A program made the translations under genes and the position numbers. A stretch of DNA of 64,000 nt from an uncultured Candidatus Saccharibacteria bacterium (GTDB lineage: Bacteria > Patescibacteriota > Dojkabacteria > SC72): the NCBI GenBank assembly GCA_964480345.1, contig CAYZNW010000001.1, positions 149,359 through 213,358 on the forward strand, given 5' to 3'. Positions 4,129 to 51,366 of the stretch are shown in pieces (position 1 is the stretch's first letter; each line of letters begins with the position of its first letter). The notes beneath the pieces are model-generated. The model saw nothing but the letters and a program-made list of their open reading frames with translations. It was not told the DNA's origin and did not search any database.

Positions 4129-5112
4129 GTGTATAGATATTTGAAATTAGAGCATATTTCATATACATTACTAAGAATGAAATCTGCCTCAAAAGAAAGC
4201 TCAACAAACTCTAAGCTACTATGTTTTGTAATGAGTATTTGGTGCATAGCTTTGTTGCTTACCGGACTATTAATGATCTCAAAAAATAGAGAAGAGAGGG
4301 AGGTGGTACAAAAACCTAATGTCGTAGCTCTAGAAAAACCAATTGTTTCAACGATAGAACATAGTCAAGAAGTAAAAGGAGTTGAAGTGGATTCTGAGTA
4401 CAGTATTCAATTCTGCTATATGGATTTCTGTAAACAACTCGAAAGTAAGAGATTCTTAGAAATGGTTGAAAACGGAAAAATATCTTCCAATTTACTAAAT
4501 ATATGGATACATACGGACTTAGAGAAGTATTTCCTTCCACTTTATTCTAAACAAGAACTAGTGAAAAATTCGAAAGGAGAATATCTGAGTAGAGTTTCTG
4601 AATATATTCCTAATTACTCTGCTATATATGAGATGTTAAATGACAGGTATGTAGCTGGTGAATATGATATTAAAATAAATATACCATCAATAATGACAGC
4701 TTCTACAGATGGTAAATTTGCATACAAATATATAGAAGTTGATAACACTCAGCAAAAACTGTATGTATGGATAGATGGTGTAGTTATTAAAGAGATATTT
4801 CTATCTGGAGCAAGAGAGGATTCTTCTGTTAAAGGTGTTTTTAATATTGTAGATAAAGGGTTGCAACCAATAGCGCCTGGAGATAAGTATATGCCTTACT
4901 GGATGGCATTTTACTATGAGCCAAGTAAGTCTACTTGGTACGGTTTGCACGGTTTGATATGGATACCAAAATCTGATGGTAGTAGATGGATTGAGCCAGT
5001 AAGTAATATAGGTAGAAGAATTAGTGGTGGGTGTATACGAATGAAGGTGGAGGATGCAAAGTATTTGTATGGGATTTTTGAAAAAGGAGAGTATGTGTTA
5101 GTACATGATTAG
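4129..5112 (+). CDS. L,D-transpeptidase (YkuD domain) with N-terminal membrane anchor
   Basis: C-terminal HGLIWIPKSDGSRWIEPVSNIGRRISGGCIRM = His/Cys catalytic signature of YkuD L,D-transpeptidases; N-terminal TM helix; true start probably ATG near 4177 (first 16 codons begin with GTG and overlap a repeat element). Confidence 0.7.
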   Translation: MYRYLKLEHISYTLLRMKSASKESSTNSKLLCFVMSIWCIALLLTGLLMISKNREEREVVQKPNVVALEKPIVSTIEHSQEVKGVEVDSEYSIQFCYMDFCKQLESKRFLEMVENGKISSNLLNIWIHTDLEKYFLPLYSKQELVKNSKGEYLSRVSEYIPNYSAIYEMLNDRYVAGEYDIKINIPSIMTASTDGKFAYKYIEVDNTQQKLYVWIDGVVIKEIFLSGAREDSSVKGVFNIVDKGLQPIAPGDKYMPYWMAFYYEPSKSTWYGLHGLIWIPKSDGSRWIEPVSNIGRRISGGCIRMKVEDAKYLYGIFEKGEYVLVHD

Positions 5113-5121
5113 TGTATAGGT

Positions 5122-5165
5122 TTGACATTTGTCTTTCTATTTAGTTATATATATGTAGATATAAT
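5122..5165 (+). promoter_or_regulatory. candidate sigma70-like promoter for the envelope operon (TTGACA-17-TTATAT, plus a second TATAAT)
   Basis: hexamers read directly upstream of 5182; no experimental support. Confidence 0.3.
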
Positions 5166-5181
5166 TTGACTGCCATATATT

Positions 5182-8100
5182 ATGGAAAATTGGGTAGGTG
5201 GAACTGTGTATACAGAGGGTGCAGATCCCCAGATAGTGGATAGTGGCAAGTACAAGGGAGAGAAAGCTAAGAGAATACTTAAGAAGGTATTTAAGGTGTT
5301 AGGCATACTGTTAGGTATAGCTTTGGTACTGTTTTTAGCCTTTCAACTTTTCCTATCAATATTCTTTAAACCTCACGATGTTAGATTAACAAATGTAACA
5401 GATACATCCTTCACAGTATCTTGGATGACTAACTATCCAATGAGAGGAGTGGTGTATTACAAAGAGAAGGATAATATATTACCAGGTCCTTTAAGTTGGA
5501 TAGGTTCTGATAAGGCATTTGACGATAGGGATATAGCAGTGGCGGAGAAAGGTTGCGTAGATAGTTTTAATAAAAAAGCAAAGGTAAGTGAAGACTTTGT
5601 AGTAGATACTAGCAACTATAACTGTGATAGTGTTAAGGTATGGAAGTTTGGTAAGTACTTTACTCACCATGTGACTTTAAAGAATTTGGATGCAAACAAG
5701 GAGTATTACTTTAGAGTAGGAGATGGATTAATAAGTTGGAAGATGGATATGAATAAGAGTGCTACTTTCTATACCTTAGATACAGAGGTAAAAACCCCAG
5801 CTCCAATATTTGGTAAGGTAGTAAGTGATGAGGGAGATTATGTAAATGATTCCATAGTGTATATCAAGTTTGTAAATGGATATTTGAATAAGGAGTCAAT
5901 GTATTACAGTAGTGCAACATCAGATAATGGAAGTTGGTATTTAGATGGTAATAACATCCGTACGATAGAGGGCGAACCAATATTAGTAGAGGTAGGTCAG
6001 GATATGATAAAGGCTTATGCCCAGTATGAGAATTACACATTGAGTGAGGGTTATGATTGGATTTATGGAGATAGTACGGTAGCTTATCCAGACTTAGTAG
6101 TAAGTGATAAGTGGGAGAAGGATTTGAGTATGGGAAGTAGTTATATTAATGATTCTTATGCAGCTCCTAGAGTAACTACAGGTGGAGATAATGAGGAGCT
6201 TAAACCACTAAGTATTAAATCTCCTAAAGCTAATTTAGTAGAAGCTACTGTTAGAGAAATGGATGCAGTCAAACAGTATAGACAAGATTTAGAAAAGGTT
6301 GAAGTAGCTAAGAAAAATACTGAGAAAGCCAAAGCAGAGTATATGGATGCTATTGCTAATAAAACAACAACTCCTGAAATACGTGTCCCTACTAATAATG
6401 AAAACGAAGGTGACAGAGAAGAACAAGTGGGCTCTACTCCGTCTCAATCTAATTATGTAGATTGTACTACCACTAATAGAAAGGATACTGTGAAATGTCC
6501 TGATCAAGCTTTGTTTGTAAGGAAAGATATCATAGGAGCAGGTTATGCCCAAAATAACCTTGTTTTAAGGCTTAAAGATAAGAATGCTAAAAAGGATGAG
6601 AATGATGTTCCGTATGTTACTGGTCCTAATGGAGAGAAAATTACAACTGAATTAGGTATATTAGAGGCAATGGGTTATTGTAACACAGCAGTAGCATGTG
6701 CAGGCAATCTCAATCTTTTAGATTCTGTTTCTCTTGAAGCTTCTGCTTTTATAGGAGAAGGGAAATTATTTAATGAAGATGGATCTAGAAATAAGGATAT
6801 TGTTAATTATGAGATAGTGACTGAGAACTCTGGTGGTAACAATGTTACAACGATTAAGTTTTTGACTGAAAGCTCAGATAACAAAAAATGTTCTTCTGTT
6901 GGGTTTGTTTTAATTAATGGACAGTGTCGTAAAGTAACTGATAATTGGGAATATTTGGGACAGAAAGAAAACCCTCAATCTTTCACACTTACTTATACTA
7001 TGAATGATTTAGGAACACTACCTTCGTATCTTAAAGGGTATGTAACAAAAAAAGATTTAGATTCAATAAAGTGTAATGAGAAATCTGCTCTATGTACAAT
7101 TAAAATGGATTATTACCCTGTAGAAGTGGATAGCTTGTTGGAAACATTGATTAAAGGGGGGGAGGCTCATAAGGAAGTTATAAAAGATTTAATTAATCTT
7201 ATTGGAGAAATGGAGAAAGAATCTTTTAAAGATTCTTCTACTATTGTTTTAAAAAACAGTATTGGTCAACAAGTAACAATAAATAAATCTTACGATGTGG
7301 AAAAATCTTCAGGAGTTGGTCAAAATGCAAGCTTTCCTGTTAGTGATCAGTTGAAGACGTTGTTTCCTTACTTAGTAGAATTAAAGTTAGAGAATATTAC
7401 ACTAGCACAAATAGAATACTATGCTTCGCTTAGACAAGAAAATATTGATAAGGGAAAAGGTCTATTAGATGTAAAGGTTGATACTACTAGTAGTACGAAG
7501 CTAGAAGAAAAAATACCAACAGAGGAAGAAGAGTTTAATTTTGAGAAAATGAAGGAGAACCTATGCAAAGGGAGTTCAAATTGTTTGGATGTTTTTTTAG
7601 AATACAATTGTGATGAGTATACAAAAAAAGGGTCATTTACTTTAAAACAAAATATCTCTTTTGGGCTAGATAGTGAGATATCCCAAGAACCATATGAGGA
7701 TTTTATAAAATATTTAGATAGTACAATTGGGCTAGAAATGCAAGACCTTTATGATAAGTATTACGCTGCTAAAGAGGAGGGAGATGACACCGGAAGATTT
7801 ATAGGAAGAATAAGTACTGCTGATGGAGTACTTCGAACAAGATTATCTGTTTGTGCTGAAAAAAGTGGCGAAGCTTTTGGAGAATGCATGTCCCAACCTT
7901 TACTAGAAAATAAAGTTCAAGGAGTATCAGATAATATTCTAGGTGTAGAAGATCAAGCTACCGAAACAAACACTCTAGGTAGTGGTTACATCACATATCT
8001 TCCAGAATACGGCTTCTATGATATGGAAGTGAATGGTCTTACAGAAAGTGAAAAAGTAGAAGGAGGAGATAATAATCTTCGTATCTTCTATGTAGAAATG

Positions 8101-8835
8101 AATGGTACACCAGGCCTACAATTCCCAGCAGATCCAGACAATCCTAAGGTAGGGGAAGACTATGTATTAAAATCAAATGCCTTAGATATCAAATACAAAA
8201 AGAGTGCAGATGTTATGACACTCAACCTTAAACAAGGTGTAAACCTAGTCTCATTTAATTACATCCCTAAACTAGATAACGATGAATACACAAAGGCCTC
8301 AAGTCTTCTAAAATGGTTGGTAAGTAAAGGAGCCCAAGTAGAACACTTCTCCTACTTTGCAGATGGTAGATGGAAAGGTATAGGATATGTTAATGGAGAA
8401 ACCACAGGAGAAGACTTTAGTGTAACTCCAGGACGAGGATACCTAGTATACAGTACCAATACAATGGATATTAGTATCCCAGGATACAAAATAACCAGTA
8501 GTGTACCAATGAATCTCAGTGCAGGTTGGAATCTAGTAGGAGTCCATGGCTATACACAGACATATTATACCGCTCGTAGCCTTCTTGATAGTATCAACAA
8601 AATAGAAGGACTTACTGCAAATAATATCTCATGGTGGCCAACATCTAAGGGTAGATATGAAGGCTTACAATTAAGTGAAGGTAAAGAATACGGTTTTGAT
8701 TTCCCAATCAGTCCAAGTAATGGTTACTTTATTCGAATCAACGAATTCAAACCAAAAGACAGCAATTGTGGCTCATTACTTTGGCATGAAGGAGGCACCC
8801 ATAACGGTGCATGTGGAAATAGCAAGAGTATGTAA
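5182..8835 (+). CDS. large membrane-anchored surface protein with N-terminal FN3/purple-acid-phosphatase-N-type domain; function unknown
   Basis: 1217 aa; cytoplasmic N-tail, one TM helix, then VRLTNVTDTSFTVSWMT...HHVTLKNLDANKEYYFRVGDG (PAP-N/FN3-like pattern), coiled-coil segment, Cys-containing C-terminus. Confidence 0.8.
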   Translation: MENWVGGTVYTEGADPQIVDSGKYKGEKAKRILKKVFKVLGILLGIALVLFLAFQLFLSIFFKPHDVRLTNVTDTSFTVSWMTNYPMRGVVYYKEKDNILPGPLSWIGSDKAFDDRDIAVAEKGCVDSFNKKAKVSEDFVVDTSNYNCDSVKVWKFGKYFTHHVTLKNLDANKEYYFRVGDGLISWKMDMNKSATFYTLDTEVKTPAPIFGKVVSDEGDYVNDSIVYIKFVNGYLNKESMYYSSATSDNGSWYLDGNNIRTIEGEPILVEVGQDMIKAYAQYENYTLSEGYDWIYGDSTVAYPDLVVSDKWEKDLSMGSSYINDSYAAPRVTTGGDNEELKPLSIKSPKANLVEATVREMDAVKQYRQDLEKVEVAKKNTEKAKAEYMDAIANKTTTPEIRVPTNNENEGDREEQVGSTPSQSNYVDCTTTNRKDTVKCPDQALFVRKDIIGAGYAQNNLVLRLKDKNAKKDENDVPYVTGPNGEKITTELGILEAMGYCNTAVACAGNLNLLDSVSLEASAFIGEGKLFNEDGSRNKDIVNYEIVTENSGGNNVTTIKFLTESSDNKKCSSVGFVLINGQCRKVTDNWEYLGQKENPQSFTLTYTMNDLGTLPSYLKGYVTKKDLDSIKCNEKSALCTIKMDYYPVEVDSLLETLIKGGEAHKEVIKDLINLIGEMEKESFKDSSTIVLKNSIGQQVTINKSYDVEKSSGVGQNASFPVSDQLKTLFPYLVELKLENITLAQIEYYASLRQENIDKGKGLLDVKVDTTSSTKLEEKIPTEEEEFNFEKMKENLCKGSSNCLDVFLEYNCDEYTKKGSFTLKQNISFGLDSEISQEPYEDFIKYLDSTIGLEMQDLYDKYYAAKEEGDDTGRFIGRISTADGVLRTRLSVCAEKSGEAFGECMSQPLLENKVQGVSDNILGVEDQATETNTLGSGYITYLPEYGFYDMEVNGLTESEKVEGGDNNLRIFYVEMNGTPGLQFPADPDNPKVGEDYVLKSNALDIKYKKSADVMTLNLKQGVNLVSFNYIPKLDNDEYTKASSLLKWLVSKGAQVEHFSYFADGRWKGIGYVNGETTGEDFSVTPGRGYLVYSTNTMDISIPGYKITSSVPMNLSAGWNLVGVHGYTQTYYTARSLLDSINKIEGLTANNISWWPTSKGRYEGLQLSEGKEYGFDFPISPSNGYFIRINEFKPKDSNCGSLLWHEGGTHNGACGNSKSM

Positions 8836-8856
8836 ATAATTTGTAAAACGAAAAAA

Positions 8857-9144
8857 ATGGAAACAATACCACCAGTATTCTGGATGATAGTCATAGCAAT
8901 ACTAACTGTAATGATATGCCTAGTCCTGTATTACCTAGCAATGCTACTAAAAGAAAGCAGAGATACTGTAGCTAAAACAGAACCAATAATTAAAGATCTA
9001 CAAACATCTGTATCATCTGTGACAGACACCTTAAATGAAGTAAACAACCTAGTAGTCAAACCAGTCAGAGGAATAGAAGCAGCCATATCCGTAGTAAATG
9101 GAATAATTACAGGAATAAAAGGTGACACAGAAGAAAAAAAATAA
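8857..9144 (+). CDS. small membrane protein, DUF948-like (N-terminal TM helix plus coiled coil)
   Basis: 95 aa; single N-terminal TM helix followed by helical segment resembling the DUF948 family. Confidence 0.5.
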   Translation: METIPPVFWMIVIAILTVMICLVLYYLAMLLKESRDTVAKTEPIIKDLQTSVSSVTDTLNEVNNLVVKPVRGIEAAISVVNGIITGIKGDTEEKK

Positions 9145-9194
9145 GAGTAGAACAATATTGTCACAAACTCCATTAAAAGGTATCATATTTCATA

Positions 9195-11093
9195 ATGAAA
9201 ATTGCTCAGCTTCCTAAAAGAAGAACAAACAACATAGTGTTGATAATCCTCATAGTAGGACTACCAATACTACTCTTTGCTACATACAAAGTAGTACAAG
9301 TAATAATCAACGCAGCAGCAGACACACAACCAAAAAATGTAGTAGTAAGTGATATAACTACAAATTCAATAAACATATCATGGGCAACAGACTCACCAGT
9401 AACAGGAGCAGTAATTGTATATCAAAATGGAACACAGAAATCACAAGTAGCTGATGCCAGAGGAGTAGGGAGGAAATTGACTCATTATGTATCAATAGAT
9501 AACCTAGAACAAGGAACAGCATACGACTTTACAATACTCTCTGGAACAGATAAATATGCATCTGAATCAGGAAAGAAATTTACATTTACAACCCCCTCGA
9601 TAACACCACAACAAGTAACTCCACACCCAATATTCGGATCTGTTACTACAAAAACAGGAGATAACGCAATAATATATGCAACACTAAGTGACAAATCAAC
9701 ATACCCTGTATCTGCTAGAGTAAAAGAAGAAGATGGCACCTGGTTAATAGACCTAGCTTCTCTCAGAAATATCTCAGATAAGAAACTTGTTACCATATCT
9801 AATATCTCTAATATATCAATAATAGTTGTAGCAGGAGTAAACAGGGGAGCTGTATTAGAAGGAAGCTACTCCTCACTTTTCAACAATGATGGGAAATTAG
9901 TAGCATCTAGCACATTAGCATTAGCTGAAAGAACAGATATGTACTCTTTCATACCAGATGGAGCAAAATTAGTAGCATATGACGAAGTCCCCCCTCCTGC
10001 ACCGACGCCAACTCCTACTCCAACACCCACGCCTAGACCAACTCCAACTCCAACTCCAACACCACCTCCTGCACCAATACCTGAACCTGAAGAAACCTTC
10101 ACAAGGAGATATAGAATCATACATCAATTAATTTGGGGTAATCTCTCATCGGAAGTAGCTTCATCACCTGTTACATCTTCTGTAACTGGAGAGAAAAGCA
10201 TCAAAGTAACAAACTTAACAGATACAGGATTTACTGTAGTATGGCTCTCTAAAGAGAAAGAGAAAGGATCTGTGAATTACGGAACAAGTAAATCAAATCT
10301 AAACAATACGGCTAGAGACACAAGAGATGGGTTAGTCTCACAAGGAGAATACTATGTACACAATATAGATGTATCAAAACTCCAACCTGAAACCACATAC
10401 TACTACGAAGTTCTCTCTGGTAAAAACACATATGACAACAGTGGAGCAAAATACAGTATAGATTCATTTGCAACATTAAGCTCACCTCCTGCATTTAAAA
10501 GTATAAAAGGAAAATTCAGCAGTATGCCATCTCATGGTGAGGGTATATTAATAGCAAGTATAGAAGATGCAGATGAAACAGGAACATTAGGAAAAAGTCT
10601 TCCAATCTCTTCTGTTATCGGAGATGCTGGGTTATTTACCTTGACTGTTTCAAATAGCTGGAGCACAGATGGTACAAAATATTTCGAATATACATCTCCT
10701 GATAAAATTAGCTTGGATGTAATGACAACATTTGATGTTAAGACTCAAACAACTACCATGAAAGATGTTGAAAGTATTGATATAGATGTTGATCTAAAAG
10801 ATATCTCATCTATACCCACTTCTACATCAGTAGGAAAAGTTCCAAGATTAACAAATTACGGAATATTAGGTGCGACAGATGGTTCTTCATTACCTGTAAG
10901 CAATCCTACAATTTCATCAACCTCTACGAACAGAATAACTACTACAAGTGGTTCTATTCCAAAAACAGGAATAGTAGAAGATATGATTTACGGTTTAGCA
11001 ATCTCGCTCTCTTTTATTCTCTTAGGAAGTATAATATACTTTAAGTCTGTTAAAAGGAAGAAATATAAAGGTAAAATGGTTACTAACTTATGA
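9195..11093 (+). CDS. cell-surface protein with two FN3/PAP-N-type domains, Pro/Thr linker and C-terminal LPXTG-like (IPKTG) sorting signal
   Basis: 632 aa; signal peptide with AAA-D cleavage-like site; two domains with ...SW(A/L)T...G.V.Y....YY(F/E)..SG pattern; PTPTPTPTPRPTPTPTP linker; C-terminus SIPKTG + hydrophobic stretch + KRKKYKGK tail. Confidence 0.8.
   Translation: MKIAQLPKRRTNNIVLIILIVGLPILLFATYKVVQVIINAAADTQPKNVVVSDITTNSINISWATDSPVTGAVIVYQNGTQKSQVADARGVGRKLTHYVSIDNLEQGTAYDFTILSGTDKYASESGKKFTFTTPSITPQQVTPHPIFGSVTTKTGDNAIIYATLSDKSTYPVSARVKEEDGTWLIDLASLRNISDKKLVTISNISNISIIVVAGVNRGAVLEGSYSSLFNNDGKLVASSTLALAERTDMYSFIPDGAKLVAYDEVPPPAPTPTPTPTPTPRPTPTPTPTPPPAPIPEPEETFTRRYRIIHQLIWGNLSSEVASSPVTSSVTGEKSIKVTNLTDTGFTVVWLSKEKEKGSVNYGTSKSNLNNTARDTRDGLVSQGEYYVHNIDVSKLQPETTYYYEVLSGKNTYDNSGAKYSIDSFATLSSPPAFKSIKGKFSSMPSHGEGILIASIEDADETGTLGKSLPISSVIGDAGLFTLTVSNSWSTDGTKYFEYTSPDKISLDVMTTFDVKTQTTTMKDVESIDIDVDLKDISSIPTSTSVGKVPRLTNYGILGATDGSSLPVSNPTISSTSTNRITTTSGSIPKTGIVEDMIYGLAISLSFILLGSIIYFKSVKRKKYKGKMVTNL
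9990..10090 (+). repeat. low-complexity Pro/Thr-coding tract (ACTCCA-type near-repeats)
   Basis: ccgacgccaactcctactccaacacccacgcctagaccaactccaactccaactccaaca read directly; encodes the PT linker. Confidence 0.6.
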
Positions 11094-12541
11094 TACAAAA
11101 AAGAAACAACAAAAAAGGCTTGTACTTCTTAACTCTATTAGGAGTATTTGCTTTTTTTGCTGTAAAAATTTCAAACAAAATACATGTTGAATCTAAAGCT
11201 ACTGAGATTAAAGTGGTGTCTACAGAAGAGTGTACAAATTGTGGAGGAGTAGAATCCAAGGTGACAGAGGAAAAAATATTACCTGAAGAACAGAACAGTA
11301 TTAAAGTGACAGTATTACCAGCATCTGAAACCGTAGATATTACTGATTCGGTCTTAGGTGTGTTAGATGTTGTGAGAGGAAAGACAGCTTGGTCATGTGA
11401 AGATTATAATGTAGCAAATCATGTAGCTTCAGATACGATACTTTGTTCTAATGGTACTGGAAGTATAAATTATGAAGGAGGTTCAGCTGAGAATGATGAG
11501 ATTAGAGTTGCTAAAGATGCTGAGATACAGCTTACAGAAGTGACATACCCATTAGCATATTGGCTTGGGAAGTATACATATGATAATAGTACAAAAACTA
11601 TTACAACAAGAACCTCTGAGTATAGATCTAGTGGTGAGCAAATTAATGAAGCATATCAAAGTAGAGCTCTTGCTCCTCAAGAAGCAGAAACGTTTCGTAA
11701 AAACATAGATGGTACTGTAAGGCAAAAATTCACAGTAGAGGGAACTGTCTCTGCAGATCCTGAAATTACCGAGATACATGAGGCAGGTAAATATGTAGTT
11801 AGAAATGCTAGTCACGATCCTAAATGTAATTGTGTGGATAAAGTCGCAGTATCTGATTTTAATGTCGGTAAAAGTAACTATATATCATCAGACAAAGATG
11901 ATGGGTTATATATGCGTCAGCAGATTCCTGGAGGAGATAAATATGATGAGAGTCCTGTAGATGGTTGTATAAAAGAGGGAGAAGATTTTAAATCTATTGA
12001 TTATGGTCTAAAACATGCCTGTTGGGATATTGTTGCAAAAATTAAGGGGATATTTAAAAATCCTTTTAGCAGAGCCCAATGGAATGCATGTAATGGGATT
12101 AAATGTGATGAAAATGATGAAGATTGCGAAGAAGGAGAACGTACAGATAATTGTATTAAGCCAGAAGATATTGGTGTGACAATGTCTTCTATTTTCGGAG
12201 ATCCATATGAATGTGAGACAGAAGGATGTGCTACAGCAGCGATGACATATGTACATAAAGCTACCCTCTCTCCTGAACAAGCAAGTAACAAGAAAATAGT
12301 ATCTGGCGAATCAGAAGAAAGTCTGATGCATTTTGTAGCTACACCTTGTAGAGCAATGGTAGTGGAGACAAGATTAGAAATAGATGTAAAATGTATTTGG
12401 GATGACTCACCAACAATGTTAAATTATTTTTTAAATAAGACAGATAGTGCTCCTGGTCAGGATTTCCCTAAGAATTTTGATACATATTGGTCTTCAACAG
12501 AAGAAGATATAAAGAAATCAGCGGAATATTATAAATTATAG
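11090..12541 (+). CDS. Cys-rich extracytoplasmic protein with N-terminal membrane anchor; hypothetical
   Basis: 483 aa; ATGA overlap with upstream gene; one N-terminal TM helix; >20 Cys in the predicted exported part. Confidence 0.7.
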   Translation: MIQKRNNKKGLYFLTLLGVFAFFAVKISNKIHVESKATEIKVVSTEECTNCGGVESKVTEEKILPEEQNSIKVTVLPASETVDITDSVLGVLDVVRGKTAWSCEDYNVANHVASDTILCSNGTGSINYEGGSAENDEIRVAKDAEIQLTEVTYPLAYWLGKYTYDNSTKTITTRTSEYRSSGEQINEAYQSRALAPQEAETFRKNIDGTVRQKFTVEGTVSADPEITEIHEAGKYVVRNASHDPKCNCVDKVAVSDFNVGKSNYISSDKDDGLYMRQQIPGGDKYDESPVDGCIKEGEDFKSIDYGLKHACWDIVAKIKGIFKNPFSRAQWNACNGIKCDENDEDCEEGERTDNCIKPEDIGVTMSSIFGDPYECETEGCATAAMTYVHKATLSPEQASNKKIVSGESEESLMHFVATPCRAMVVETRLEIDVKCIWDDSPTMLNYFLNKTDSAPGQDFPKNFDTYWSSTEEDIKKSAEYYKL

Positions 12542-12571
12542 AAAAATATAAATTATTATAAATAACAATAG

Positions 12572-13921
12572 ATGATTAAACTAAGAAAATTTATTACAAT
12601 TTCTTTATTATCATTCCTCTTACTAGGATCAGTGGTAGGAACAGCTTATGCGCAAGAATCACCCAAATTAGATACTAGGACAGGTTGGCAGAAATTAATT
12701 GAAAAAGTAGGAAAATTTACAGATAGTATAGGTGAGAATATTTCTCAATTCATAGGTAAGCAGATATATGGTGCTTTAGAAACCACTACAATGGAGGTAT
12801 GTCCTACATGTACTGTTGGAGGTGAACGAGTAATGAATGATCCAAATATCCCAGAAAGTGCGAAAATGGGTTTGTTAGAAACAAGTGAAAAAGCGGTATA
12901 TACAATGTTTAATAGCTTTCCTGATGTGGATGTTACTGATCATTTAGCAAGCCAGTGGGTTCCAGGATATGCAGATTCAAGCAGTACATATGCAGGTGGA
13001 TATGAGGATTTACGAACATCTAAAGTAGATGTTTTGTGGACTGCTACTAGAGATATAGCATATATTGGGTTTGTGTTAGTGATGATAGTTATTGGTTTTA
13101 TGATTATGTTTAGACATAAGATAGGTGGACAAATGATGGTCACAGTAGGTAATGCAATTCCTAAAGTTATAGTTGCATTAGTACTTGTTACTTTCAGCTT
13201 CGCTATCATAGGTCTAATTATAGATCTAGGAGGTTTTATAATGAGACTTGTAGAGGTCTTGTTGTATGGCGATGCAGGTGAAGGAATAAATGTTACAAAT
13301 CCTAAACAAATGATGAGTGGCTTCTTCGACAAAAATGCTGTTTTCAAATTAGGTGGACCTAGTGAAAATGTTGGGACTCTCGTCTTCTCTATATTAGCAA
13401 TTTTTGGAATTGGTGGAGTTATTGTTGTAGGAATAACTAGCTTGTTATTAACTTTAATAATAATTGGAATTCTGTTTGTTGGTATGGTTAAACTTTGGCT
13501 AACTTTATTAAAAGCATATCTTGGAATTATTATAAATGTTATAGTTGCTCCATTAGCGATATTTGCAGGAGCATTGCCAGGGAATGAGGCATCTACTATA
13601 AATATATTTAAATCAACATTGAGAAATGTATTAGTCTTTCCAATAGCATATACTATTGTCAATCTTCCTTATTATGCTGATTTCAAAGGATTATCTTTGA
13701 TGTTTCCTGCAACATTGACAGGTGAGGGAGCTGCAAATTTAGAAGTGGGTAATTTTATACTAGCAGTTGTTAAAATAGTTGCGATATATGCTGCTTCAAG
13801 TGCTCCTGCAATAGCAGCAACCTTAATACCTCCTACAGCATCTAAACAAGCAGGAGATGCGGCAACTTCTATAAAAGCAAGCTTGTCTGGAGTACCATTT
13901 ATAGGTGGAATGTTTAAATAG
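12572..13921 (+). CDS. polytopic membrane protein with signal peptide (VirB6/TrbL-like topology); hypothetical
   Basis: 449 aa; cleavable-type signal peptide (AYA-Q), ~130-aa exported domain, then 6-7 TM helices. Confidence 0.7.
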   Translation: MIKLRKFITISLLSFLLLGSVVGTAYAQESPKLDTRTGWQKLIEKVGKFTDSIGENISQFIGKQIYGALETTTMEVCPTCTVGGERVMNDPNIPESAKMGLLETSEKAVYTMFNSFPDVDVTDHLASQWVPGYADSSSTYAGGYEDLRTSKVDVLWTATRDIAYIGFVLVMIVIGFMIMFRHKIGGQMMVTVGNAIPKVIVALVLVTFSFAIIGLIIDLGGFIMRLVEVLLYGDAGEGINVTNPKQMMSGFFDKNAVFKLGGPSENVGTLVFSILAIFGIGGVIVVGITSLLLTLIIIGILFVGMVKLWLTLLKAYLGIIINVIVAPLAIFAGALPGNEASTINIFKSTLRNVLVFPIAYTIVNLPYYADFKGLSLMFPATLTGEGAANLEVGNFILAVVKIVAIYAASSAPAIAATLIPPTASKQAGDAATSIKASLSGVPFIGGMFK

Positions 13922-13938
13922 TCTAATTATAAATATAT

Positions 13939-16473
13939 ATGGCCAAGGAGAAACCGAAACAGTATGAAGATGCTTTGGGATCCATATACGACTTTATTTT
14001 TGCAGAAACAAAGAAGTCGCCTGTAAAAGTCAAGCCAGTTAAAGTTACTGGTATAGATGGTACTTCTGAGTTCGCAGATGCTCTGATAGCTACTCTTGAA
14101 AACCCACTTCTCTTTGTTAACAAATCGACGATGAGTGCATTTGAGGAGGTGATTAATTATGATTTACTAAGTTTTAGATACGGTACTGGAGAGAGAGATA
14201 AAGTCAAATTTAATGTAAAAGATATACCAAAAGCATTAAAAGATCCTACTGGCTTTTTAGATAAAGCATTTGCAAAATATGATGCAAATAGAAAAGTAAA
14301 CAAAGCATTATGGGCAGGTGATGCTATTCAGGGAGCATTGGGAGGAATATGGGCTAGAAAGCATGGATTAGACAGAGAGACTGTCTTGGCTATGTCACAA
14401 GTGCATAGAAGCTCAGATAGATTCAAGCAAACAGCAAATTTTGATCCTACAAAAGTAGCTGGAGTTGGAGAAAGAACAGGGCAGTTAATAGATAAACATT
14501 TAGTTAGTCCTACAAGATCGTATACCTTAGTAGATTTCAAAGAGAGATATGGTTCTGATGTTGTAGCAAAAAGAAAATTTGAAGAGTATAAAAAGATGCT
14601 AGCTAAAGCGACGACAGAGAAGGGTAGAAGATCATTAATATACGATAAGAATGCTTATGTTTTTCTTGAAGGACAAGATATACGAGATAAAGCTGAAGCA
14701 GCAGAACAATCTGGGGATATTTTGAAAGCAGAGAATTATTATAGAGCAAGAAGACAATTAGACTCTTCGTTATCAAAGGAGCAGAGAGAAATAAACGAAA
14801 GAAAAAATGATTTAGAGATAGAGAAATATAAAACTGCGATAAGAGGTTTAAGAGCAAGTAGTGATCCTGATAAAGATGATAAAATAGCTGAGTTAGAGAG
14901 GGAAATAAAATCTATACGTTCTGATAGAAGATTATCAGCAGTTATGAGAGCATCTGCTTTTTGGGGAAAAGCTGATGGCTTTATTTCTTCTCTTAAAGCA
15001 ACAGCCAATATTAACCTTGGGGATGTCTTTATAACAGGAGCTTTCTTTGACCCATCTAATAAAAGTTGGGCTAACCCTCTAGATATAGCATCTAGAAAAA
15101 CATTAAGTGAAGCTGGTGTTAGGGGTTTTAGCAAAATTAATGTTAATGGATCTGATATCGGGTTTAAAATAGCAAAAACTTCTGGATCTAGATATTCGCA
15201 AGCATATAACGATGCTATGCTTAAGATATACTACAATACGCCAGTAGCCCGTATTAAATCCCTGTTTAATGGAGAGCTGTATGCATACAAGGTGTATGAG
15301 AATATGAATAAATTTCAAAACAAGTTTGGAAATAGTATCACTGGTTTTGATATGTCAAAGCTAATAAATGATAAAGGAGAAGTAGATGATATCTATCTCG
15401 ATAGTATAATTTCAGTTGTTCCGGCAGAACAGGTAGAGGCTATTACGAAATTTCTTAAAAAAGATGAAAGATTAAGAAAAATAGCATATCGATTTAATAC
15501 TGTAAAGCGTTGGCAGGATAAAGTTTCAGGATACTTTGACTCGAAAATAGGTAAAAAAGCTAGAGAGAAAATAGCTAATCTGCTTCTTCAAAGTGAAGCA
15601 TTTAAGAAGTTCTCATCTGTGTTGTTGAAAGAATGGGTAGAGAAAGGTGGAGTTCAGGTGTTAGGGAAGGCTATAGGAACAGCTCTTAGTGGAGTTCTTG
15701 GTCCTCTAGGTATGGTTGTTGGTGATGCTATTGCAAGTGCTGCTATGAAGTTAGCTCAAAAAATTGCAAAACCAGTAATAAAACTAGGAATCCAGGGATT
15801 GCTATATTCTATAATCGGACTGATTGGTATTTTAGTCTTGTTTTTTTCGGTTGTCTTTAGAAGTTCAGCCTTTCTTTCAGTAAACTCAAATGTCGCTCCT
15901 GTTGAAGTAGTAAAATGTAATGGATCTAATAATTTAGATGGTGAAAGTGAAGTTGAAGGGGGAGACTTCAATTTTGTAGACCTCGGTGCTGATGTTCCGA
16001 TTTTCTCTGGATCTGTTATGGAAATATACAATAAAATGGCGGCAAGTATGGGACTTGGAACGCAGTTAGAGCTTGTCTCATGTCCTGGACATCGTATGTG
16101 TTCTAGTATTGATTGGGCATGGTGTTATAGTGCTGATAAAATTTACTGTAGAGGTGATAAATTAAGTGGCCAATCTAACGCAACTCTCTCGAAACTATTT
16201 GCTCATGAACTTTTACATCAAGTACAAGGAAGAAATATGGGAGGAGCTCCATCTGTAGTACGTGAATGGGGAGCAGATTTACTAGCAGGCAATGGTGGAG
16301 GATACAAATTCAAAGTAAATGGACAGTGTGTAACTGCAACTTCAACAAAATCATACTTCCTCTCTAGAGGTTGTTCAGAGGGGCAGCTCTCTGATTTAGC
16401 TCGAAATGTTCCAGGTGCTATATCAAGTTCATGTGGAAGCATGGTTGCATCTTCTATCAATTTTTGTAGATAA
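13939..16473 (+). CDS. large membrane protein: cytoplasmic coiled-coil region, TM hairpin, extracellular Cys-rich domain with HExxH zincin-like motif; hypothetical
   Basis: 844 aa; no N-terminal signal; long coiled coil (aa ~200-330); TM helices near aa 560-640; C-terminal FAHELLHQVQGRN...E and 12 Cys. Confidence 0.7.
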   Translation: MAKEKPKQYEDALGSIYDFIFAETKKSPVKVKPVKVTGIDGTSEFADALIATLENPLLFVNKSTMSAFEEVINYDLLSFRYGTGERDKVKFNVKDIPKALKDPTGFLDKAFAKYDANRKVNKALWAGDAIQGALGGIWARKHGLDRETVLAMSQVHRSSDRFKQTANFDPTKVAGVGERTGQLIDKHLVSPTRSYTLVDFKERYGSDVVAKRKFEEYKKMLAKATTEKGRRSLIYDKNAYVFLEGQDIRDKAEAAEQSGDILKAENYYRARRQLDSSLSKEQREINERKNDLEIEKYKTAIRGLRASSDPDKDDKIAELEREIKSIRSDRRLSAVMRASAFWGKADGFISSLKATANINLGDVFITGAFFDPSNKSWANPLDIASRKTLSEAGVRGFSKINVNGSDIGFKIAKTSGSRYSQAYNDAMLKIYYNTPVARIKSLFNGELYAYKVYENMNKFQNKFGNSITGFDMSKLINDKGEVDDIYLDSIISVVPAEQVEAITKFLKKDERLRKIAYRFNTVKRWQDKVSGYFDSKIGKKAREKIANLLLQSEAFKKFSSVLLKEWVEKGGVQVLGKAIGTALSGVLGPLGMVVGDAIASAAMKLAQKIAKPVIKLGIQGLLYSIIGLIGILVLFFSVVFRSSAFLSVNSNVAPVEVVKCNGSNNLDGESEVEGGDFNFVDLGADVPIFSGSVMEIYNKMAASMGLGTQLELVSCPGHRMCSSIDWAWCYSADKIYCRGDKLSGQSNATLSKLFAHELLHQVQGRNMGGAPSVVREWGADLLAGNGGGYKFKVNGQCVTATSTKSYFLSRGCSEGQLSDLARNVPGAISSSCGSMVASSINFCR

Positions 16474-16485
16474 TGTAAATATAAT

Positions 16486-17493
16486 ATGAAGGACTTTTTT
16501 GTGAAATATAAATGGTTTATTCTAATAGGAATAATTCTAGGAATAATTTTTGTTGTAGTATTTATTCTTACTAAACAAGAGAAAGAGCAAACTACTCCTT
16601 CTGTAGCTAATAATAAAGTATTTGTTGAGCCATTTGCACTCCAGAGTACATACAGTATCAAAACAGTACCATCTACACAATCACTTTTTGAAAGTGAATA
16701 TATTCCTGTATATACAATTCGAGCAAGAAGCACATCAATTGAAGATTTAGTTGCGAAGTTAAATCGAAATCTTACAAAAATTGCTGAGTCACAATATGCG
16801 ATTAGTTGGAGTTTCGGTACAATTCTAGTTGGGTACAATTACGATATGGGTCTTTTAAGTCTAACTTCTCAGGAGAAAACAGATTTAGGAATCAAGATTG
16901 TAGACGAGAACGATGTCATAGATTTTTTTAAAAGTTATCTCGATTATCAAGTTGATGGAATTAGCAAATCAAAAGATTTTGATGGGGGTTATATATATAC
17001 AGGAAAGTATAATATTGGACAGTTTAAGTTTGGTTCTCTTGAAATAGATTCAAATGCGTATAAACTTCGTGTAGATAGCTCAAACAATCTATATCAATTC
17101 GATATTTTTCTTTATGATGCATCATCAGCTATCGAATACTCTACATATCTTCCAATAAATCCCACTAACCTTGTAAATGCAAAGAGAATCTTTGGAAAAT
17201 ATATTAGTATGCATGAGAGCTATTATGGAAAAAATCCAATACAGCAATCCTCTATAGAAATAATTCAAGATGATCCTAATCAGCTTATTTCTACACATCT
17301 ATTCAGAAATTTCTCATACGGATATATATACCCTGTGTATATAATTAATTCAGATGTCAGGTTAAAAGATTTTGTAGGAAATGAGTATCTAGCTACTATC
17401 AACTACTATATCTGTGCTGTCTCAGAAGAGTACTTAGAGAGAAGTGGAGTTGAAGATGAAGGTAATCTTCCTGTCCCGTATTTAGAACAGTAA
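16486..17493 (+). CDS. membrane-anchored hypothetical protein (single N-terminal TM)
   Basis: 335 aa; N-terminal TM helix, remainder predicted extracytoplasmic; no recognisable motif. Confidence 0.65.
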   Translation: MKDFFVKYKWFILIGIILGIIFVVVFILTKQEKEQTTPSVANNKVFVEPFALQSTYSIKTVPSTQSLFESEYIPVYTIRARSTSIEDLVAKLNRNLTKIAESQYAISWSFGTILVGYNYDMGLLSLTSQEKTDLGIKIVDENDVIDFFKSYLDYQVDGISKSKDFDGGYIYTGKYNIGQFKFGSLEIDSNAYKLRVDSSNNLYQFDIFLYDASSAIEYSTYLPINPTNLVNAKRIFGKYISMHESYYGKNPIQQSSIEIIQDDPNQLISTHLFRNFSYGYIYPVYIINSDVRLKDFVGNEYLATINYYICAVSEEYLERSGVEDEGNLPVPYLEQ

Positions 17494-17541
17494 GAATTTA
17501 AAAATATCCCAAATCATCTAAATAGATGATACAATAAAAGA

Positions 17542-18717
17542 ATGAAAAAATTTCTATTGCCGATTTTCTTAGTAATAGTTGTGTTGTTACTTCCATCTAT
17601 GGTAGATGCTTTCTCCTTCTACTCTGTATCCTCTCAGAAATTTGATACATCTCTGTTAGACAGCTCTAATCAAACCTACTCAGAGCCAAATAAAATCCTC
17701 ATAACACCCGTGAATACAGTATCCCAATCACTATCAAGAGATCCTGCAAAATGGGTCAAATTCCTCTACTACTACTCAATTACAAGATTACACTTAATGG
17801 ATTTACCGTACACCTACCTTTTAGATGAAAGCGGATTAATCTATCAAGGAAAAACTGGATATGTAGGAGCAAATACTGGAATAGAAAATGCTGATGGTGC
17901 AATCCTAATAGGATACCTATCTAACAACCCAATAATGACAGTAAGAGCTCAATCCTCATTAAAAGAAATCGTAGATGATATCTCTTCAAAATGGAGCATA
18001 TCACAAATAGAAGCAGTTACTTTAGATATTAAGAAAAACGACAACGAAATATCCGCACTCTCATATAAACCCGCTACAGGAGAGTTCTTACTGTCTGTCA
18101 AAGAACTCTTTGGGAATTGGAAAGAAAGTAAAGGAAGTAATCTAACACCTAAAGCGAAAATAGAGAATCTACAGTATGTTAAAGATGTCGAAGTATTAAA
18201 AAGAACAAAAGTATCATTTACCCTCAAAAACATGAACGATTTTGTATGGTTTACTGATAGAAATCCAATTTATGTTGCTACTGCAAATGGAAAAAACAGT
18301 GGATTCGCAATCAATCAAGTTTGGGAAAGCTTTTCCAGACCAGTAAGTATTTCAGATAAAGTGATTCTACCTGGTGAGAGCATAGAAGTCTCTTTTGAAA
18401 TGGAAGCTAAAGTCAAAGTAGGTGAAGTAAAAGAATCTTTTGTACTACTTAAATTCAATGATCAACCATTTGAAGATTCCACTTTTGATGTTGTTTTAAA
18501 TATTGTAAAAGGAAATAGCCAATTGGTAGAAGTAGTATCTCCACAATACGGATTTGTAAATATTAGAGAGTGTCAATGGTATAGTTGTAAAATTCTTGAT
18601 ACAGTTGATAGCGGTACCGTCTTTATACTGTTAGAAGAGAAAGATGCTTGGTCTAGAGTAAAATTTGGTCTTGAAGCAGAAGGCTGGGTAGCCTCAAGAT
18701 TTTTAAGAAAAATTTAA
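17542..18717 (+). CDS. secreted protein with amidase_2/PGRP-like segment and C-terminal SH3b domain (putative peptidoglycan hydrolase or binding protein)
   Basis: 391 aa; signal peptide; YTYLLDESGLIYQGKTGYVGANTG...ADGAILIGYL resembles amidase_2 core (catalytic His not obvious); C-terminal GFVNIREC...GTVFILLEEKDAWSRVKF..GWVASRFL matches bacterial SH3 pattern. Confidence 0.55.
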   Translation: MKKFLLPIFLVIVVLLLPSMVDAFSFYSVSSQKFDTSLLDSSNQTYSEPNKILITPVNTVSQSLSRDPAKWVKFLYYYSITRLHLMDLPYTYLLDESGLIYQGKTGYVGANTGIENADGAILIGYLSNNPIMTVRAQSSLKEIVDDISSKWSISQIEAVTLDIKKNDNEISALSYKPATGEFLLSVKELFGNWKESKGSNLTPKAKIENLQYVKDVEVLKRTKVSFTLKNMNDFVWFTDRNPIYVATANGKNSGFAINQVWESFSRPVSISDKVILPGESIEVSFEMEAKVKVGEVKESFVLLKFNDQPFEDSTFDVVLNIVKGNSQLVEVVSPQYGFVNIRECQWYSCKILDTVDSGTVFILLEEKDAWSRVKFGLEAEGWVASRFLRKI

Positions 18718-18728
18718 AGAATATTTCA

Positions 18729-20732
18729 ATGAACATAGAAAATATATTAAAGGGATTAAATCCCGGACAAAAGAAAGCTGTTCTCTGTACTGAAGGACCA
18801 CTTCTTGTTTTTGCTGGAGCAGGATCTGGCAAAACAAGAGTCATTACTAACCGAATAGCGTATCTGATTACTGCAAAAGGAGTTAGTCCCAGAAATATCA
18901 TGGCAGTCACATTTACCAAAAAAGCAGCAGGAGAGATGCAAGAAAGAGTCACTACCTTACTTAAAGATTTAAATTCAGAGAATAAAGGCTTTCCTACAAT
19001 TGGTACATTTCATTCAATAGGAGCAATGATATTAAGAAGTAATGCCAAAGAAGTGGGATTAACTAACAATTTCTCTATATATGACTCTGATGACAGCGAA
19101 AATGTCATAAAAGAACTCCTATTAGAAAGAGATATAGATATAAAACAAATAAAACCTCAATCTATAGCCTATTTCATAGGAGCTGCAAAAAATGACATGA
19201 TTACTCCTGAACAATTTGGACACCACTATTCAGGATATATTGAAGATATAGTGGCAGAAATATATCCACAATATCAAAAACAACTCTTAGCACAAAATTC
19301 TGTAGATTTTAGTGATCTACTTTACTTAACAGTAAAACTTTTAGAAGAAAATCAAAAAATCAGAGAGAAATACCAAGAACAGTATAAATATATCCTTATA
19401 GATGAATATCAGGATACCAATAACGCTCAATACCGATTTGCTAAAATTCTTTCAGATAAATATAAAAATATTTGTGTAGTAGGAGATGACGATCAAGGAA
19501 TATATGCATGGAGAGGTGCTGATATTAAAAACATACAATCATTTGAAGATGACTTTGAAAATGTCTCTGTTATCAAATTAGAACAGAATTACCGCTCAAC
19601 AAAAAATGTCATAGAGGCTGCTGTCAGTGTCATAAAACAGAATAATAGAAGAGTAGATAAAGTTTTGTGGACTGATAATAACGAAGGAGAGAAGATATCA
19701 ATTTATCAAGCTACTAATCAAGAAGATGAATCTTCATATGTTGTAGATAAGGTCAGAAGTCTAGCTCAACAAATGATTCCACTCAAAAACATAGCTGTTT
19801 TATATAGAACGAACTATCAATCTCGAGCAATAGAGGAGGCGTTGTTGAAAAGTGGGTTGCCTTATAAGCTTGTAGGAGGTTTTCGATTCTACGAGAGGAA
19901 AGAAATTAAAGATATCATAAGTTACTTAAGATTCTGTTTTAATTTAAAAGATGAATTAAGTCTAGATAGAATTATAAATGTACCTAGTAGAAAAATAGGA
20001 CCTAAAGCAGTTGCAGATATTCACGGTATGGCTAAAGAATGCAACTTAACTGTAGGAGAGTTTCTAGTAGGCGCATATATTGTATTAAATAAAGAGTTTA
20101 GTGAAGAGCTTCCGTTTTCTGCTAGTAAAGTTTCTGCAATAGAAAGTATTGAAGATAGTTGGAGTAAATATGTCTCTTTAATAAATCTCTTTGGTCATTT
20201 ATATTTTATGTCCCGAAAACAAACTTTGATTGAGATAATAGATAGTATTATCGAAAATACTAAATATATTAAATCTTTTGATGATGGAACTGAGCAGGCG
20301 CAGATGCAGAAAGAGAATATTCAGGAGTTAAAGAATGTTGCTTCTTCATACTCTTCGAAACATGGGCTAAAGAGCTTGGAGATTTTTCTCAATGAAGTAA
20401 ATTTGATAGAACAGGAGCAGGATAAAAATCAGGATGGTTCGAATAACTATCTTAATTTGATGACACTTCACTCCTCGAAGGGCTTAGAGTTTGATTATGT
20501 ATTTATAATAGGGATGGAAGAAGGGTTGCTTCCACACTCGCGTGCTTTTGTTGATGAAAATGAGTTAGAAGAAGAAAGAAGGCTCTGCTATGTAGGGATT
20601 ACACGAGCTAAACAGAAATTATTTATGACATTTGCGGAAAATAGATTAACAAGAGAGGGGTACACTTCTCAAATACCTTCTAGATTTCTAGGAGAAATTC
20701 CACAAGAGATTTGTGAGTATTACAGCTTCTAG
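18729..20732 (+). CDS. uvrD: ATP-dependent DNA helicase, UvrD/PcrA/Rep family
   Basis: 667 aa; Walker A GAGSGKT, helicase motifs (DEYQDTN, VGDDDQ, YRS), C-terminal VGITRAK. Confidence 0.85.
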   Translation: MNIENILKGLNPGQKKAVLCTEGPLLVFAGAGSGKTRVITNRIAYLITAKGVSPRNIMAVTFTKKAAGEMQERVTTLLKDLNSENKGFPTIGTFHSIGAMILRSNAKEVGLTNNFSIYDSDDSENVIKELLLERDIDIKQIKPQSIAYFIGAAKNDMITPEQFGHHYSGYIEDIVAEIYPQYQKQLLAQNSVDFSDLLYLTVKLLEENQKIREKYQEQYKYILIDEYQDTNNAQYRFAKILSDKYKNICVVGDDDQGIYAWRGADIKNIQSFEDDFENVSVIKLEQNYRSTKNVIEAAVSVIKQNNRRVDKVLWTDNNEGEKISIYQATNQEDESSYVVDKVRSLAQQMIPLKNIAVLYRTNYQSRAIEEALLKSGLPYKLVGGFRFYERKEIKDIISYLRFCFNLKDELSLDRIINVPSRKIGPKAVADIHGMAKECNLTVGEFLVGAYIVLNKEFSEELPFSASKVSAIESIEDSWSKYVSLINLFGHLYFMSRKQTLIEIIDSIIENTKYIKSFDDGTEQAQMQKENIQELKNVASSYSSKHGLKSLEIFLNEVNLIEQEQDKNQDGSNNYLNLMTLHSSKGLEFDYVFIIGMEEGLLPHSRAFVDENELEEERRLCYVGITRAKQKLFMTFAENRLTREGYTSQIPSRFLGEIPQEICEYYSF

Positions 20733-51362: not shown

Positions 51363-51366
51363 AAAC

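Follow-up and report, generated by a model that had tools for sequence, protein, structure and literature searches.

A conserved envelope gene cluster of Candidatus Dojkabacteria with a putative VirB6/DotA-like membrane protein

What might eight consecutive genes, each coding for a protein with a membrane anchor or signal peptide, build together in the cell envelope of a member of the Patescibacteria? The question is raised by positions 5182–18717 of a 64,000-nucleotide (nt) stretch of contig CAYZNW010000001.1 (hereafter the window, by which we mean this whole stretch), whose source organism belongs to Candidatus Dojkabacteria (WS6) within the Patescibacteria, or Candidate Phyla Radiation (CPR). 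An earlier note on this DNA had taken the eight genes for an envelope apparatus specific to a CPR lineage and reminiscent of Gram-positive conjugation modules. We propose, at a probability of roughly 0.55, that the cluster arose from the monoderm-type type IV secretion system (T4SS) of Patescibacteria and encodes a module that spans the envelope, resides on the chromosome, and is inherited vertically. This proposal is based mainly on the conservation of the gene order, the predicted fold of one polytopic membrane protein, and the genomic surroundings of its distant homologs.

Calling of open reading frames (ORFs) returned nine plus-strand genes at exactly the coordinates of the earlier note. 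The eight genes of the cluster are called P2 to P9 in their order on the plus strand, and the gene at 4129 in front of them encodes an L,D-transpeptidase. With the helicase gene that follows, the region reads (aa, amino acids; TM, transmembrane helix):

4129–5112, plus strand: L,D-transpeptidase (YkuD; PF03734, 44.3 bits against a cut-off of 23.4)
5182–8835, plus strand: P2, 1217-aa surface protein with a PAP_N/FN3 domain and an N-terminal TM
8857–9144, plus strand: P3, 95-aa coiled small membrane protein with an N-terminal TM and a sub-threshold DUF948 match
9195–11093, plus strand: P4, 632-aa surface protein with PAP_N and fn3 domains and an IPKTG sorting signal
11090–12541, plus strand: P5, 483-aa disulfide-rich exoprotein with an N-terminal signal or anchor and 16 Cys
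12572–13921, plus strand: P6, 449-aa polytopic protein, putatively a divergent VirB6/DotA-like subunit by fold similarity and genomic context
13939–16473, plus strand: P7, 844-aa bitopic protein with TM 613–649 and a Cys-rich HExxH ectodomain
16486–17493, plus strand: P8, 335-aa bitopic protein with TM 3–33 and an ectodomain of ~300 aa
17542–18717, plus strand: P9, 391-aa secreted PGRP-like/SH3b protein (PGRP, peptidoglycan recognition protein; SH3_3 and PDB profile matches)
18729–20732, plus strand: pcrA/uvrD-type helicase (TIGR01073; UvrD-helicase and UvrD_C of Pfam)

From the L,D-transpeptidase gene through P9, successive gaps measure 69, 21, 50, −4, 30, 17, 12, and 48 nt, the overlap of P4 and P5 being an ATGA at 11090–11093. 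The eight co-directional genes with gaps of −4 to 50 nt were thus described correctly in the earlier note, and so were their membrane anchors or signal peptides: hydropathy profiles place an N-terminal hydrophobic segment in P2, P3, P4, P5, P6, P8, and P9, several TM in P6, and a single strong TM at residues 613–649 of P7. The G+C content of the cluster (0.34–0.36) equals that of the remaining window. Tight packing alone is ordinary for a compact genome. Promoter- and terminator-like sites were no commoner in consensus scans than in shuffled sequence, for which reason these scans neither support nor exclude a single transcript, and it is synteny that supplies evidence beyond chance.

One genome per species was scanned for related loci, which yielded 341 relatives, of which 79 loci (numbered with the prefix L) were kept; the window proteins were mapped onto the ORFs of these loci by BLASTP and hidden Markov models (HMMs). 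Every homolog of P6 is an unnamed protein, and most derive from Candidatus Dojkabacteria. In about 60 species-level genomes the same order recurs at one chromosomal site: rsmB and rsmE on the minus strand, then P2 (not always present), P3, P4, P5, P6, P7, P8, P9, and pcrA on the plus strand, followed 3' of pcrA by a minus-strand gene of ~307 aa, a tetratricopeptide repeat gene, and the gene for EF-G. Since gene order is shared at the same site across these genomes, random juxtaposition is excluded; the synteny check proposed in the earlier note found the order kept, and its idea of a lineage-specific apparatus agrees with conservation in ~60 Dojkabacteria species. P6 and P7 are adjacent in 71 of 81 loci, paralogous pairs included. 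P5-P6-P7 occur together in 57 of the 81, P5-P8 in 45, P3-P9 in 31, and the full P2-P9 in 27, most loci without the full order ending at contig ends. The core of the cluster is P5-P6-P7-P8. In the deep-branching loci L065, L067, and L068 only these four genes are found, between queA and tgt, which are adjacent in the window (50337–52404, plus strand); this indicates that the module moved between two housekeeping sites during the evolution of the class. The L,D-transpeptidase, which the earlier note had listed with the eight genes, is not part of the conserved unit, because it occupies the position upstream of the cluster only in the window genome and its closest relative, L005. A homolog of the enzyme lies elsewhere in locus L025.

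Within the core, P5 is always the gene immediately 5' of P6. The earlier note had recognized it as a Cys-rich exoprotein, and its 16 Cys confirm this; orthologs carry 9–17 Cys, and across 27 of them five Cys are invariant and five nearly so. No match to P5 was found in Pfam, PHROGs, NCBIfam, or PDB, the last by both sequence and profile. P6 has a signal peptide and ~120 aa that form an outer domain, and its TM helices make up a bundle whose sequence is highly conserved and contains invariant Arg, Lys, Gln, Asn, and Asp residues. An exhaustive profile search showed that it represents a large unannotated family: at 50% identity it comprises 4288 representatives, of which 1348 scored below 1e-30. 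A moderate AlphaFold2 model (predicted local distance difference test, pLDDT, 65; predicted template modelling score, pTM, 0.49) was compared with PDB by Foldseek, and the top four matches were TrwI/VirB6 chains of the R388 T4SS (E 0.034–0.18, probability 0.94–1.00), while the next families had probabilities below 0.1. No long structural match of P6 was found other than VirB6 and DotA, which also rank best. Among 60 distant relatives of P6, TrbL/VirB6 is also the commonest sub-threshold Pfam hit (4/60, best E 5.4e-4), followed by TrbC/VirB2 with three. By fold and genomic context rather than by membership in a sequence family, P6 may therefore be regarded as the VirB6-type polytopic inner-membrane subunit that a T4SS would be expected to contain. 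The designation "VirB6/TrbL-like" in the earlier note holds in this structural sense, but not as a family assignment.

A resemblance of P6 to pilins was also seen. An HMM built from the VirB2-like pilins of L082 weakly matches P6 of several Dojkabacteria (E 1e-5 to 4e-3; orthologs in L062, L063, and L046), and in two relatives inspected the sub-threshold TrbC/VirB2 matches cover residues ~170–240 of proteins of 600 aa. The corresponding pilin-like region of P6 would comprise residues ~150–235 (window 13020–13280), the first TM hairpin. This likeness may reflect shared ancestry with the pilin hairpin, or hydrophobic composition only.

Distant homologs of P6, taken at the tblastn 1e-30 level, point in the same direction as its fold. 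The P6-like gene sits in T4SS-type loci of other Patescibacteria-type genomes, one labelled Woesebacteria and several with implausible labels. VirB2-like pilin arrays (PF18895) lie next to it in L077, L078, L080, L082, and L083, PrgI/VirB3 genes are found in L082 and L081, and the loci further contain a YtxH-type small protein as well as large proteins whose C-terminal domain is SLT_3 (lysozyme-like) or M23. This gene content agrees with what has been published on the T4SS of Patescibacteria (Wang et al., 2023, PMC10633639; Quinonero-Coronel et al., 2025, PMC12102498). When the HMMs of P2-P9 were run against the T4SS-type loci outside the Dojkabacteria, P6 alone matched; the large M23 proteins of these loci are at most putative homologs of P7. 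Several contigs of metagenome-assembled genomes (L039, L077, L079-L082) and protein P0109 are labelled Pseudomonadales, Gammaproteobacteria, Caldisericales, or Lysobacteraceae despite their Patescibacteria-type gene, and many Dojkabacteria-like contigs carry the label "Saccharibacteria"; both kinds of label probably stem from mis-binned or mislabelled records.

Many Dojkabacteria possess a second, paralogous module (L066, L070, L071, L073-L076; e.g., L071:8998-13818 and L076:5822-13232). Its members are a short secreted protein (~235 aa) that contains Cys, one or two P6-like proteins (P6', 545–900 aa), and a P7-like protein (P7', 630–770 aa) without ectodomain; the module follows dnaA, yidC, jag, and a Wzy_C gene, and hence lies near the replication origin. 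T4SS genes of Patescibacteria have likewise been reported near dnaA (Quinonero-Coronel et al., 2025). A VirB4 gene beside the P6'-P7' pair was considered and rejected, the flanks being dnaA, yidC, jag, Wzy_C, an FtsA-like gene, RNase J, and LeuRS, with no ATPase among them. Taken over both modules, a disulfide-rich exoprotein, P6, and P7, in this order and usually followed by P8, form the invariant association.

P7 is the candidate for opening the cell wall. A conserved domain without signal peptide, predicted to be mostly helical with a coiled-coil stretch, takes up its N-terminal ~570–600 aa; owing to the missing signal peptide and a Lys-rich loop before the TM, this domain is most likely cytoplasmic and the C-terminal domain outside. 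Of 28 ortholog ectodomains compared with Pfam, 10 match Peptidase_M23 and 2 match CHAP, and the family profile finds ShyA and further M23 structures (E 6e-7), through the M23 ectodomain only. In the window protein and those of L005 and L011, the block SHxxxxAID...HLHLE of the other orthologs is replaced by AHELLHQV, an HExxH motif; window P7 is devoid of the M23 zinc motifs HxxxD and HxH and gave no Pfam match and, as a single sequence, no PDB match. The HExxH/Cys-rich ectodomain noted earlier is thus real but atypical of the family, in which M23 (LytM) prevails at this place, and is a lineage-specific replacement. Some orthologs are 1040–1170 aa long instead of the usual ~850 (L020:5142-8651, L024:3174-6341, L030:11346-14834, L065:11119-14241), and the ectodomain appears to be a hotspot of domain gain and exchange. 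VirB1-like proteins with M23 domains have been reported for the T4SS of Patescibacteria (Quinonero-Coronel et al., 2025), and the P7 orthologs, judged by their domains, would represent such a VirB1-like, membrane-anchored wall hydrolase of a monoderm T4SS. The AlphaFold2 model of P7 is helical and of low confidence (pLDDT 54, 10 homologs) and had no fold match, so that structural comparison, which the earlier note had recommended for all eight proteins, was informative for P6 but not for P7. No Walker A motif was present in P7' proteins (motif scan) or in P7 (reading of the translation); together with the helical model lacking a fold match, this does not support P7 or P7' as a degenerate VirB4/TrsD.

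Between P7 and P9 there is always a gene of ~330 aa, P8, with a mean column identity of 28%, whose HMM also matches in the deep-branching loci. P8 evolves fast; it has no Pfam or PDB profile match, a homolog search returned 6 proteins, and 32 orthologs compared with Pfam produced noise only. By its size, position, and topology it would fit a scaffold of the VirB8/TcpC type, a bitopic protein with NTF2-like domain(s). P9 is the most conserved protein of the cluster (mean column identity 52%) and consists of a PGRP/Amidase_2-like N-terminal domain, a middle domain, and a C-terminal SH3b domain (SH3_3, E 2.3e-7). Against PDB its family profile retrieves the SH3b domain of an autolytic lysozyme (E 5e-6) and PGRP-SD (E 5e-5) along with many other PGRPs. 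The catalytic zinc ligands of such domains (His, His, Cys/Asp) were not recovered in the PGRP-like domain: outside SH3b, the conservation of His and of Cys stays below 40% in every column, and on this ground P9 more likely binds the wall than acts on it as an amidase. The name "amidase-like/SH3b protein" used earlier therefore applies to the domain similarities but probably not to the activity, and P9 probably serves as a non-catalytic peptidoglycan-binding anchor.

Several results weigh against a derivation from T4SS. VirB4, VirD4 (type IV coupling protein, T4CP), PrgI/VirB3, a VirB2-like pilin, and a relaxase (not searched by name) are missing from the cluster, from the window, and from up to 10 kb around the related Dojkabacteria loci, where the absence of ATPases in the window and flanks was established by motif scans and reading of translations and not by a full profile scan of every flank gene. 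The VirB4-family ATPase expected alongside a T4SS was thus not found here, as the earlier note had already remarked for the cluster. P6 remains below the gathering threshold of PF04610 (TrbL/VirB6), has no match in Pfam, NCBIfam, or PHROGs, and has none in PDB by sequence or profile search. P5, the N-terminal domain of P7, and P8 were linked to no T4SS component by profile or structure searches. Finally, universal vertical conservation at a single site beside housekeeping genes fits a function in cell wall or growth equally well. Further searches agree with the missing parts: no P-loop protein is found among P2-P9 (Pfam, NCBIfam), the P-loop proteins of the window being translation factors and PcrA, and the L082 pilin HMM and a PrgI query detected nothing in the window or the Dojkabacteria loci except the weak matches to P6. 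In the literature, two Dojkabacteria entries of a supplementary genome table end in "Yes", which we read as a flag for VirB4, the column header not being displayed in that table (Quinonero-Coronel et al., 2025); on this reading, the ATPase would be encoded at another place in these genomes. The preprint version of the same study lists Dojkabacteria among the lineages with T4SS.

The same observations bear on the possibility that the cluster encodes a wall-remodelling or morphogenesis complex unrelated to secretion, with P7 as a tethered peptidoglycan endopeptidase under cytoplasmic control via its coiled-coil domain, in concept resembling FtsEX-EnvC or PcsB. P9 would then be its wall-binding partner, P6 a transporter or scaffold, and P2 and P4 wall-associated proteins. 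We consider this account, including the division of roles, rather unlikely, though it is the main rival: it would explain the M23, CHAP, or HExxH ectodomain of P7, the PGRP-like and SH3b domains of P9, the core-genome behaviour and fixed housekeeping position of the cluster, and the lack of ATPase, pilin, and relaxase, and it could invoke the neighbouring L,D-transpeptidase of the window genome and the invariant charged residues in the TM helices of P6, which are reminiscent of transporters. However, the structures that P6 matches best, and the only ones that it matches over a long stretch, are T4SS subunits, its distant homologs reside in loci with pilins and PrgI and not in division or wall-synthesis clusters, and conservation of the cluster does not extend to the L,D-transpeptidase. 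Moreover, the enzyme domain of P7 is freely swapped among lineages, which fits generic hole-punching better than a defined step of wall growth.

Alternatively, P5-P8 might constitute an autonomous VirB6/DotA-type protochannel uncoupled from T4SS ATPases, a core and possibly essential envelope conduit that was fixed throughout a class of ultra-small bacteria and duplicated near the origin. We regard this as rather unlikely. If true, the conduit could move host-derived nutrients or nucleic acids, or build a contact site with a partner, and the co-located PcrA could be a functional partner. Much less credible still is that the cluster is the functionless remnant of a decayed integrated conjugative element (ICE). 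The VirB6-like P6, the lytic enzyme P7, and the LPXTG-type adhesin do recall the mating-pair-formation (MPF) modules of ICEs and plasmids, and the M23/CHAP orthologs of P7 bear out, together with P6, the earlier comparison with Gram-positive conjugation modules; a decayed element, however, would hardly retain the same site and order with intact ORFs across ~60 species, highly conserved P6 and P9, and a composition identical to that of its flanks. General Pfam/NCBIfam scans of the cluster proteins revealed no relaxase, integrase, or coupling protein, nor did the flank translations show an integrase or relaxase, neither of these two having been searched by name; repeats were not noticed either, no search aimed at them having been made.

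The genes preceding the core encode surface proteins of more variable occurrence. P2 (Pfam Pur_ac_phosph_N, E 8.7e-10) has a TM at residues 31–65 and a long Cys-containing ectodomain; most related loci have it, but L001 and L010 are among those without it and L016 and L022 among those in which it is duplicated, which makes it a variable accessory member. In P4 (PAP_N, E 4.9e-18; fn3, E 9.2e-11; both Pfam), an N-terminal TM or signal is followed by two FN3/PAP_N domains with a Pro/Thr linker between them, a Ser/Thr stalk, and, at the C-terminus, IPKTG with a TM helix and a basic tail, which corresponds to a sortase-type sorting signal. The two FN3/PAP-N surface proteins, one LPXTG-like, of the earlier note are hence recovered. 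A (T/I)PxTG motif with hydrophobic run and basic tail occurs in 26 of 33 long-form orthologs of P4 and in none of 19 short forms, which suggests that P4 is often sortase-anchored. No ORF of at least 100 aa in the window contains the sortase signature TLxTC; the search for a sortase and T4SS ATPases suggested earlier for the genome was accordingly negative within the window.

P4 and its sorting signals could also be explained by a sortase-dependent adhesin or surface-fibril locus, of which P2 and P4 would be the products and the remaining proteins helpers in export and anchoring. The FN3/PAP_N domains, the signal in most long P4 orthologs, and the wall-binding P9 would suit such a locus. Even so it is improbable, as the window ORFs offer no sortase signature, several genomes dispense with P2, 19 P4 orthologs have no signal, and P2 and P4 are absent from both the minimal P5-P8 unit of deep-branching loci and the paralogous P5'-P6'-P7' module.

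P3, which is kept directly 5' of P4 in related loci, has an N-terminal TM followed by an amphipathic coiled segment, a design known from DUF948/YtxH proteins. The DUF948 match (E 2.2e-4) lies below the Pfam cut-off, so the label "DUF948-like" given before is weakly supported but falls short of the threshold. A small protein of the YtxH family is encoded just 5' of the P6-like gene in the CPR T4SS locus L082; as the P3 HMM does not match it, the likeness is one of analogy only. The possibility that P3 is a VirB2-like pilin was rejected, since it has one TM helix only and matches T4SS_pilin with an E-value of 0.03.

At the 3' end, the unit is probably longer than eight genes. The product of the helicase gene starting 11 nt downstream of P9 matches TIGR01073 with E 1e-227, below the equivalog cut-off. 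P9 is followed by pcrA in 41 of 41 loci, at a gap of at most 36 nt in 37 of them (usually 9–36 nt), which implies that the unit probably extends past 18717 and through pcrA. While the earlier note was right about housekeeping genes on both sides, pcrA is therefore more than a mere flank: it is probably the last gene of the transcription unit, which on the strength of gene spacing would be co-transcribed with the envelope genes. Gram-positive ICEs and rolling-circle plasmids use PcrA as their helicase.

Farther out, the cluster is flanked upstream by PNPase, rsmB, and rsmE and downstream, after pcrA, by EF-G, EF-Tu, and ribosomal genes; reading of translations identified EF-G, EF-Tu, SecY, queA, tgt, RNase Y, and tRNA synthetases among the other window genes. 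Between pcrA and the conserved gene of ~306 aa at 26311–27231, the minus strand (20739–25889) codes for a repetitive surface protein of 1716 aa with an N-terminal signal or anchor, many Ig-like repeats rich in Thr, and a TM at the C-terminus. Because relatives have no such gene there, it looks like an insertion specific to this lineage. An ORF of ~505 aa (55537–57054, plus strand) follows an RNase Y-like gene, and L068 has a protein with CAP and Ig-like domains at the equivalent position.

Returning to the preferred derivation from a monoderm T4SS, the gene content and its conservation, the fold similarity of P6, the domains of P7 and P9, and the T4SS surroundings of distant P6 homologs are observations, whereas the way in which the complex is put together, the orientation of P7 in the membrane, the parts played by P5 and P8, and any cargo are inferred. 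P6 would form the VirB6/DotA-type membrane platform, and P5 could sit on its outer face in the manner of VirB5 on VirB6 and IcmX on DotA. P7 would cross the membrane once, keeping its large helical domain in the cytoplasm, and its outer peptidase (M23, CHAP, or HExxH) would cut the wall locally for passage of the complex, a role comparable to that of VirB1/PrgK. P8 may act as a bitopic extracytoplasmic scaffold, and P9 could tether the assembly to peptidoglycan via its catalytically dead PGRP-like domain and SH3b. P3 would contribute a small membrane-anchored coiled protein, and P2 and P4 FN3-type contact proteins. With the ATPases outside the cluster, the module might dock to ATPases encoded in trans or work without them. 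The module might serve attachment to a host or partner, as the earlier note had suggested.

Patescibacteria make up a large share of bacterial diversity, and a T4SS is essential for on-host growth in one Saccharibacterium, the only species in which this was tested. By profile search, VirB6 was found to be "scarce or absent" in Microgenomatia, which the authors attribute to divergence (Quinonero-Coronel et al., 2025). In view of this remark and of the missing Pfam/NCBIfam matches, published HMM surveys appear to have missed the P6 family as VirB6, none of its 4288 clusters having a Pfam domain, and the family may supply the "missing" VirB6 of Microgenomatia-type lineages. The VirB6-like subunit travels with a fixed set of partners (P5, P7, and P8) even apart from VirB4, pilins, and VirB3. 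A testable hypothesis follows on the proteins by which the machine crosses the envelope in monoderm CPR bacteria, and on whether a VirB6-type platform works without ATPases. As far as we have searched the literature, this class-wide cluster, with its VirB6-like subunit apart from VirB4, VirB3, and pilins, has not been described. The same applies to its tie to FN3 adhesins, a disulfide-rich exoprotein, a dead PGRP/SH3b protein, and pcrA, and to the P5-P6-P7(-P8) association, its paralog near oriC, and the swapping ectodomain of P7.

How does the cluster compare with known systems? Firstly, PrgK (pCF10), TraG (pIP501), and CwlT (ICEBs1) are membrane-anchored proteins that open the wall by modular LytM(M23), CHAP, or lysozyme ectodomains, and orthologs of P7 carry M23 or CHAP as well. 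Unlike these proteins, P7 has a helical N-terminal domain of ~570–600 aa for which they offer no counterpart, and in the window HExxH takes the place of M23. Secondly, P9 resembles PGRP/Amidase_2 (T7-lysozyme-like) proteins with SH3b at the profile level, at the E-values given above for either domain. It differs from Amidase_2 amidases by the lack of conserved His/Cys, wherein it resembles non-catalytic recognition PGRPs. Thirdly, P6 has its structural models in the TrwI/VirB6-TrwJ/VirB5 stalk of the R388 T4SS and the DotA-IcmX protochannel of Legionella Dot/Icm, at 13–18% identity and without a profile match. P5 (483 aa, Cys-rich) shows no detectable similarity to VirB5 or IcmX, and in contrast to those systems Dojkabacteria are monoderm and encode no ATPase hexamers alongside. 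The closest counterpart is the Patescibacteria T4SS, which is related to MPF_FATA (Wang et al., 2023; Quinonero-Coronel et al., 2025). The Dojkabacteria cluster departs from it by having no VirB4, TrsD, PrgI/VirB3, or VirB2-like pilin array within 10 kb, and by its FN3 adhesins, disulfide-rich exoprotein, PGRP-like/SH3b protein, and linkage to pcrA. Both, however, are of monoderm type, chromosomal, and vertically inherited. They share a (here putative) VirB6-type polytopic subunit, the absence of a relaxase, and large membrane proteins with an M23 or lysozyme domain at the end; the paralogous copy of the Dojkabacteria module lies near dnaA, a frequent location of such systems, and homologs of P6 are found inside such T4SS loci in other CPR lineages.

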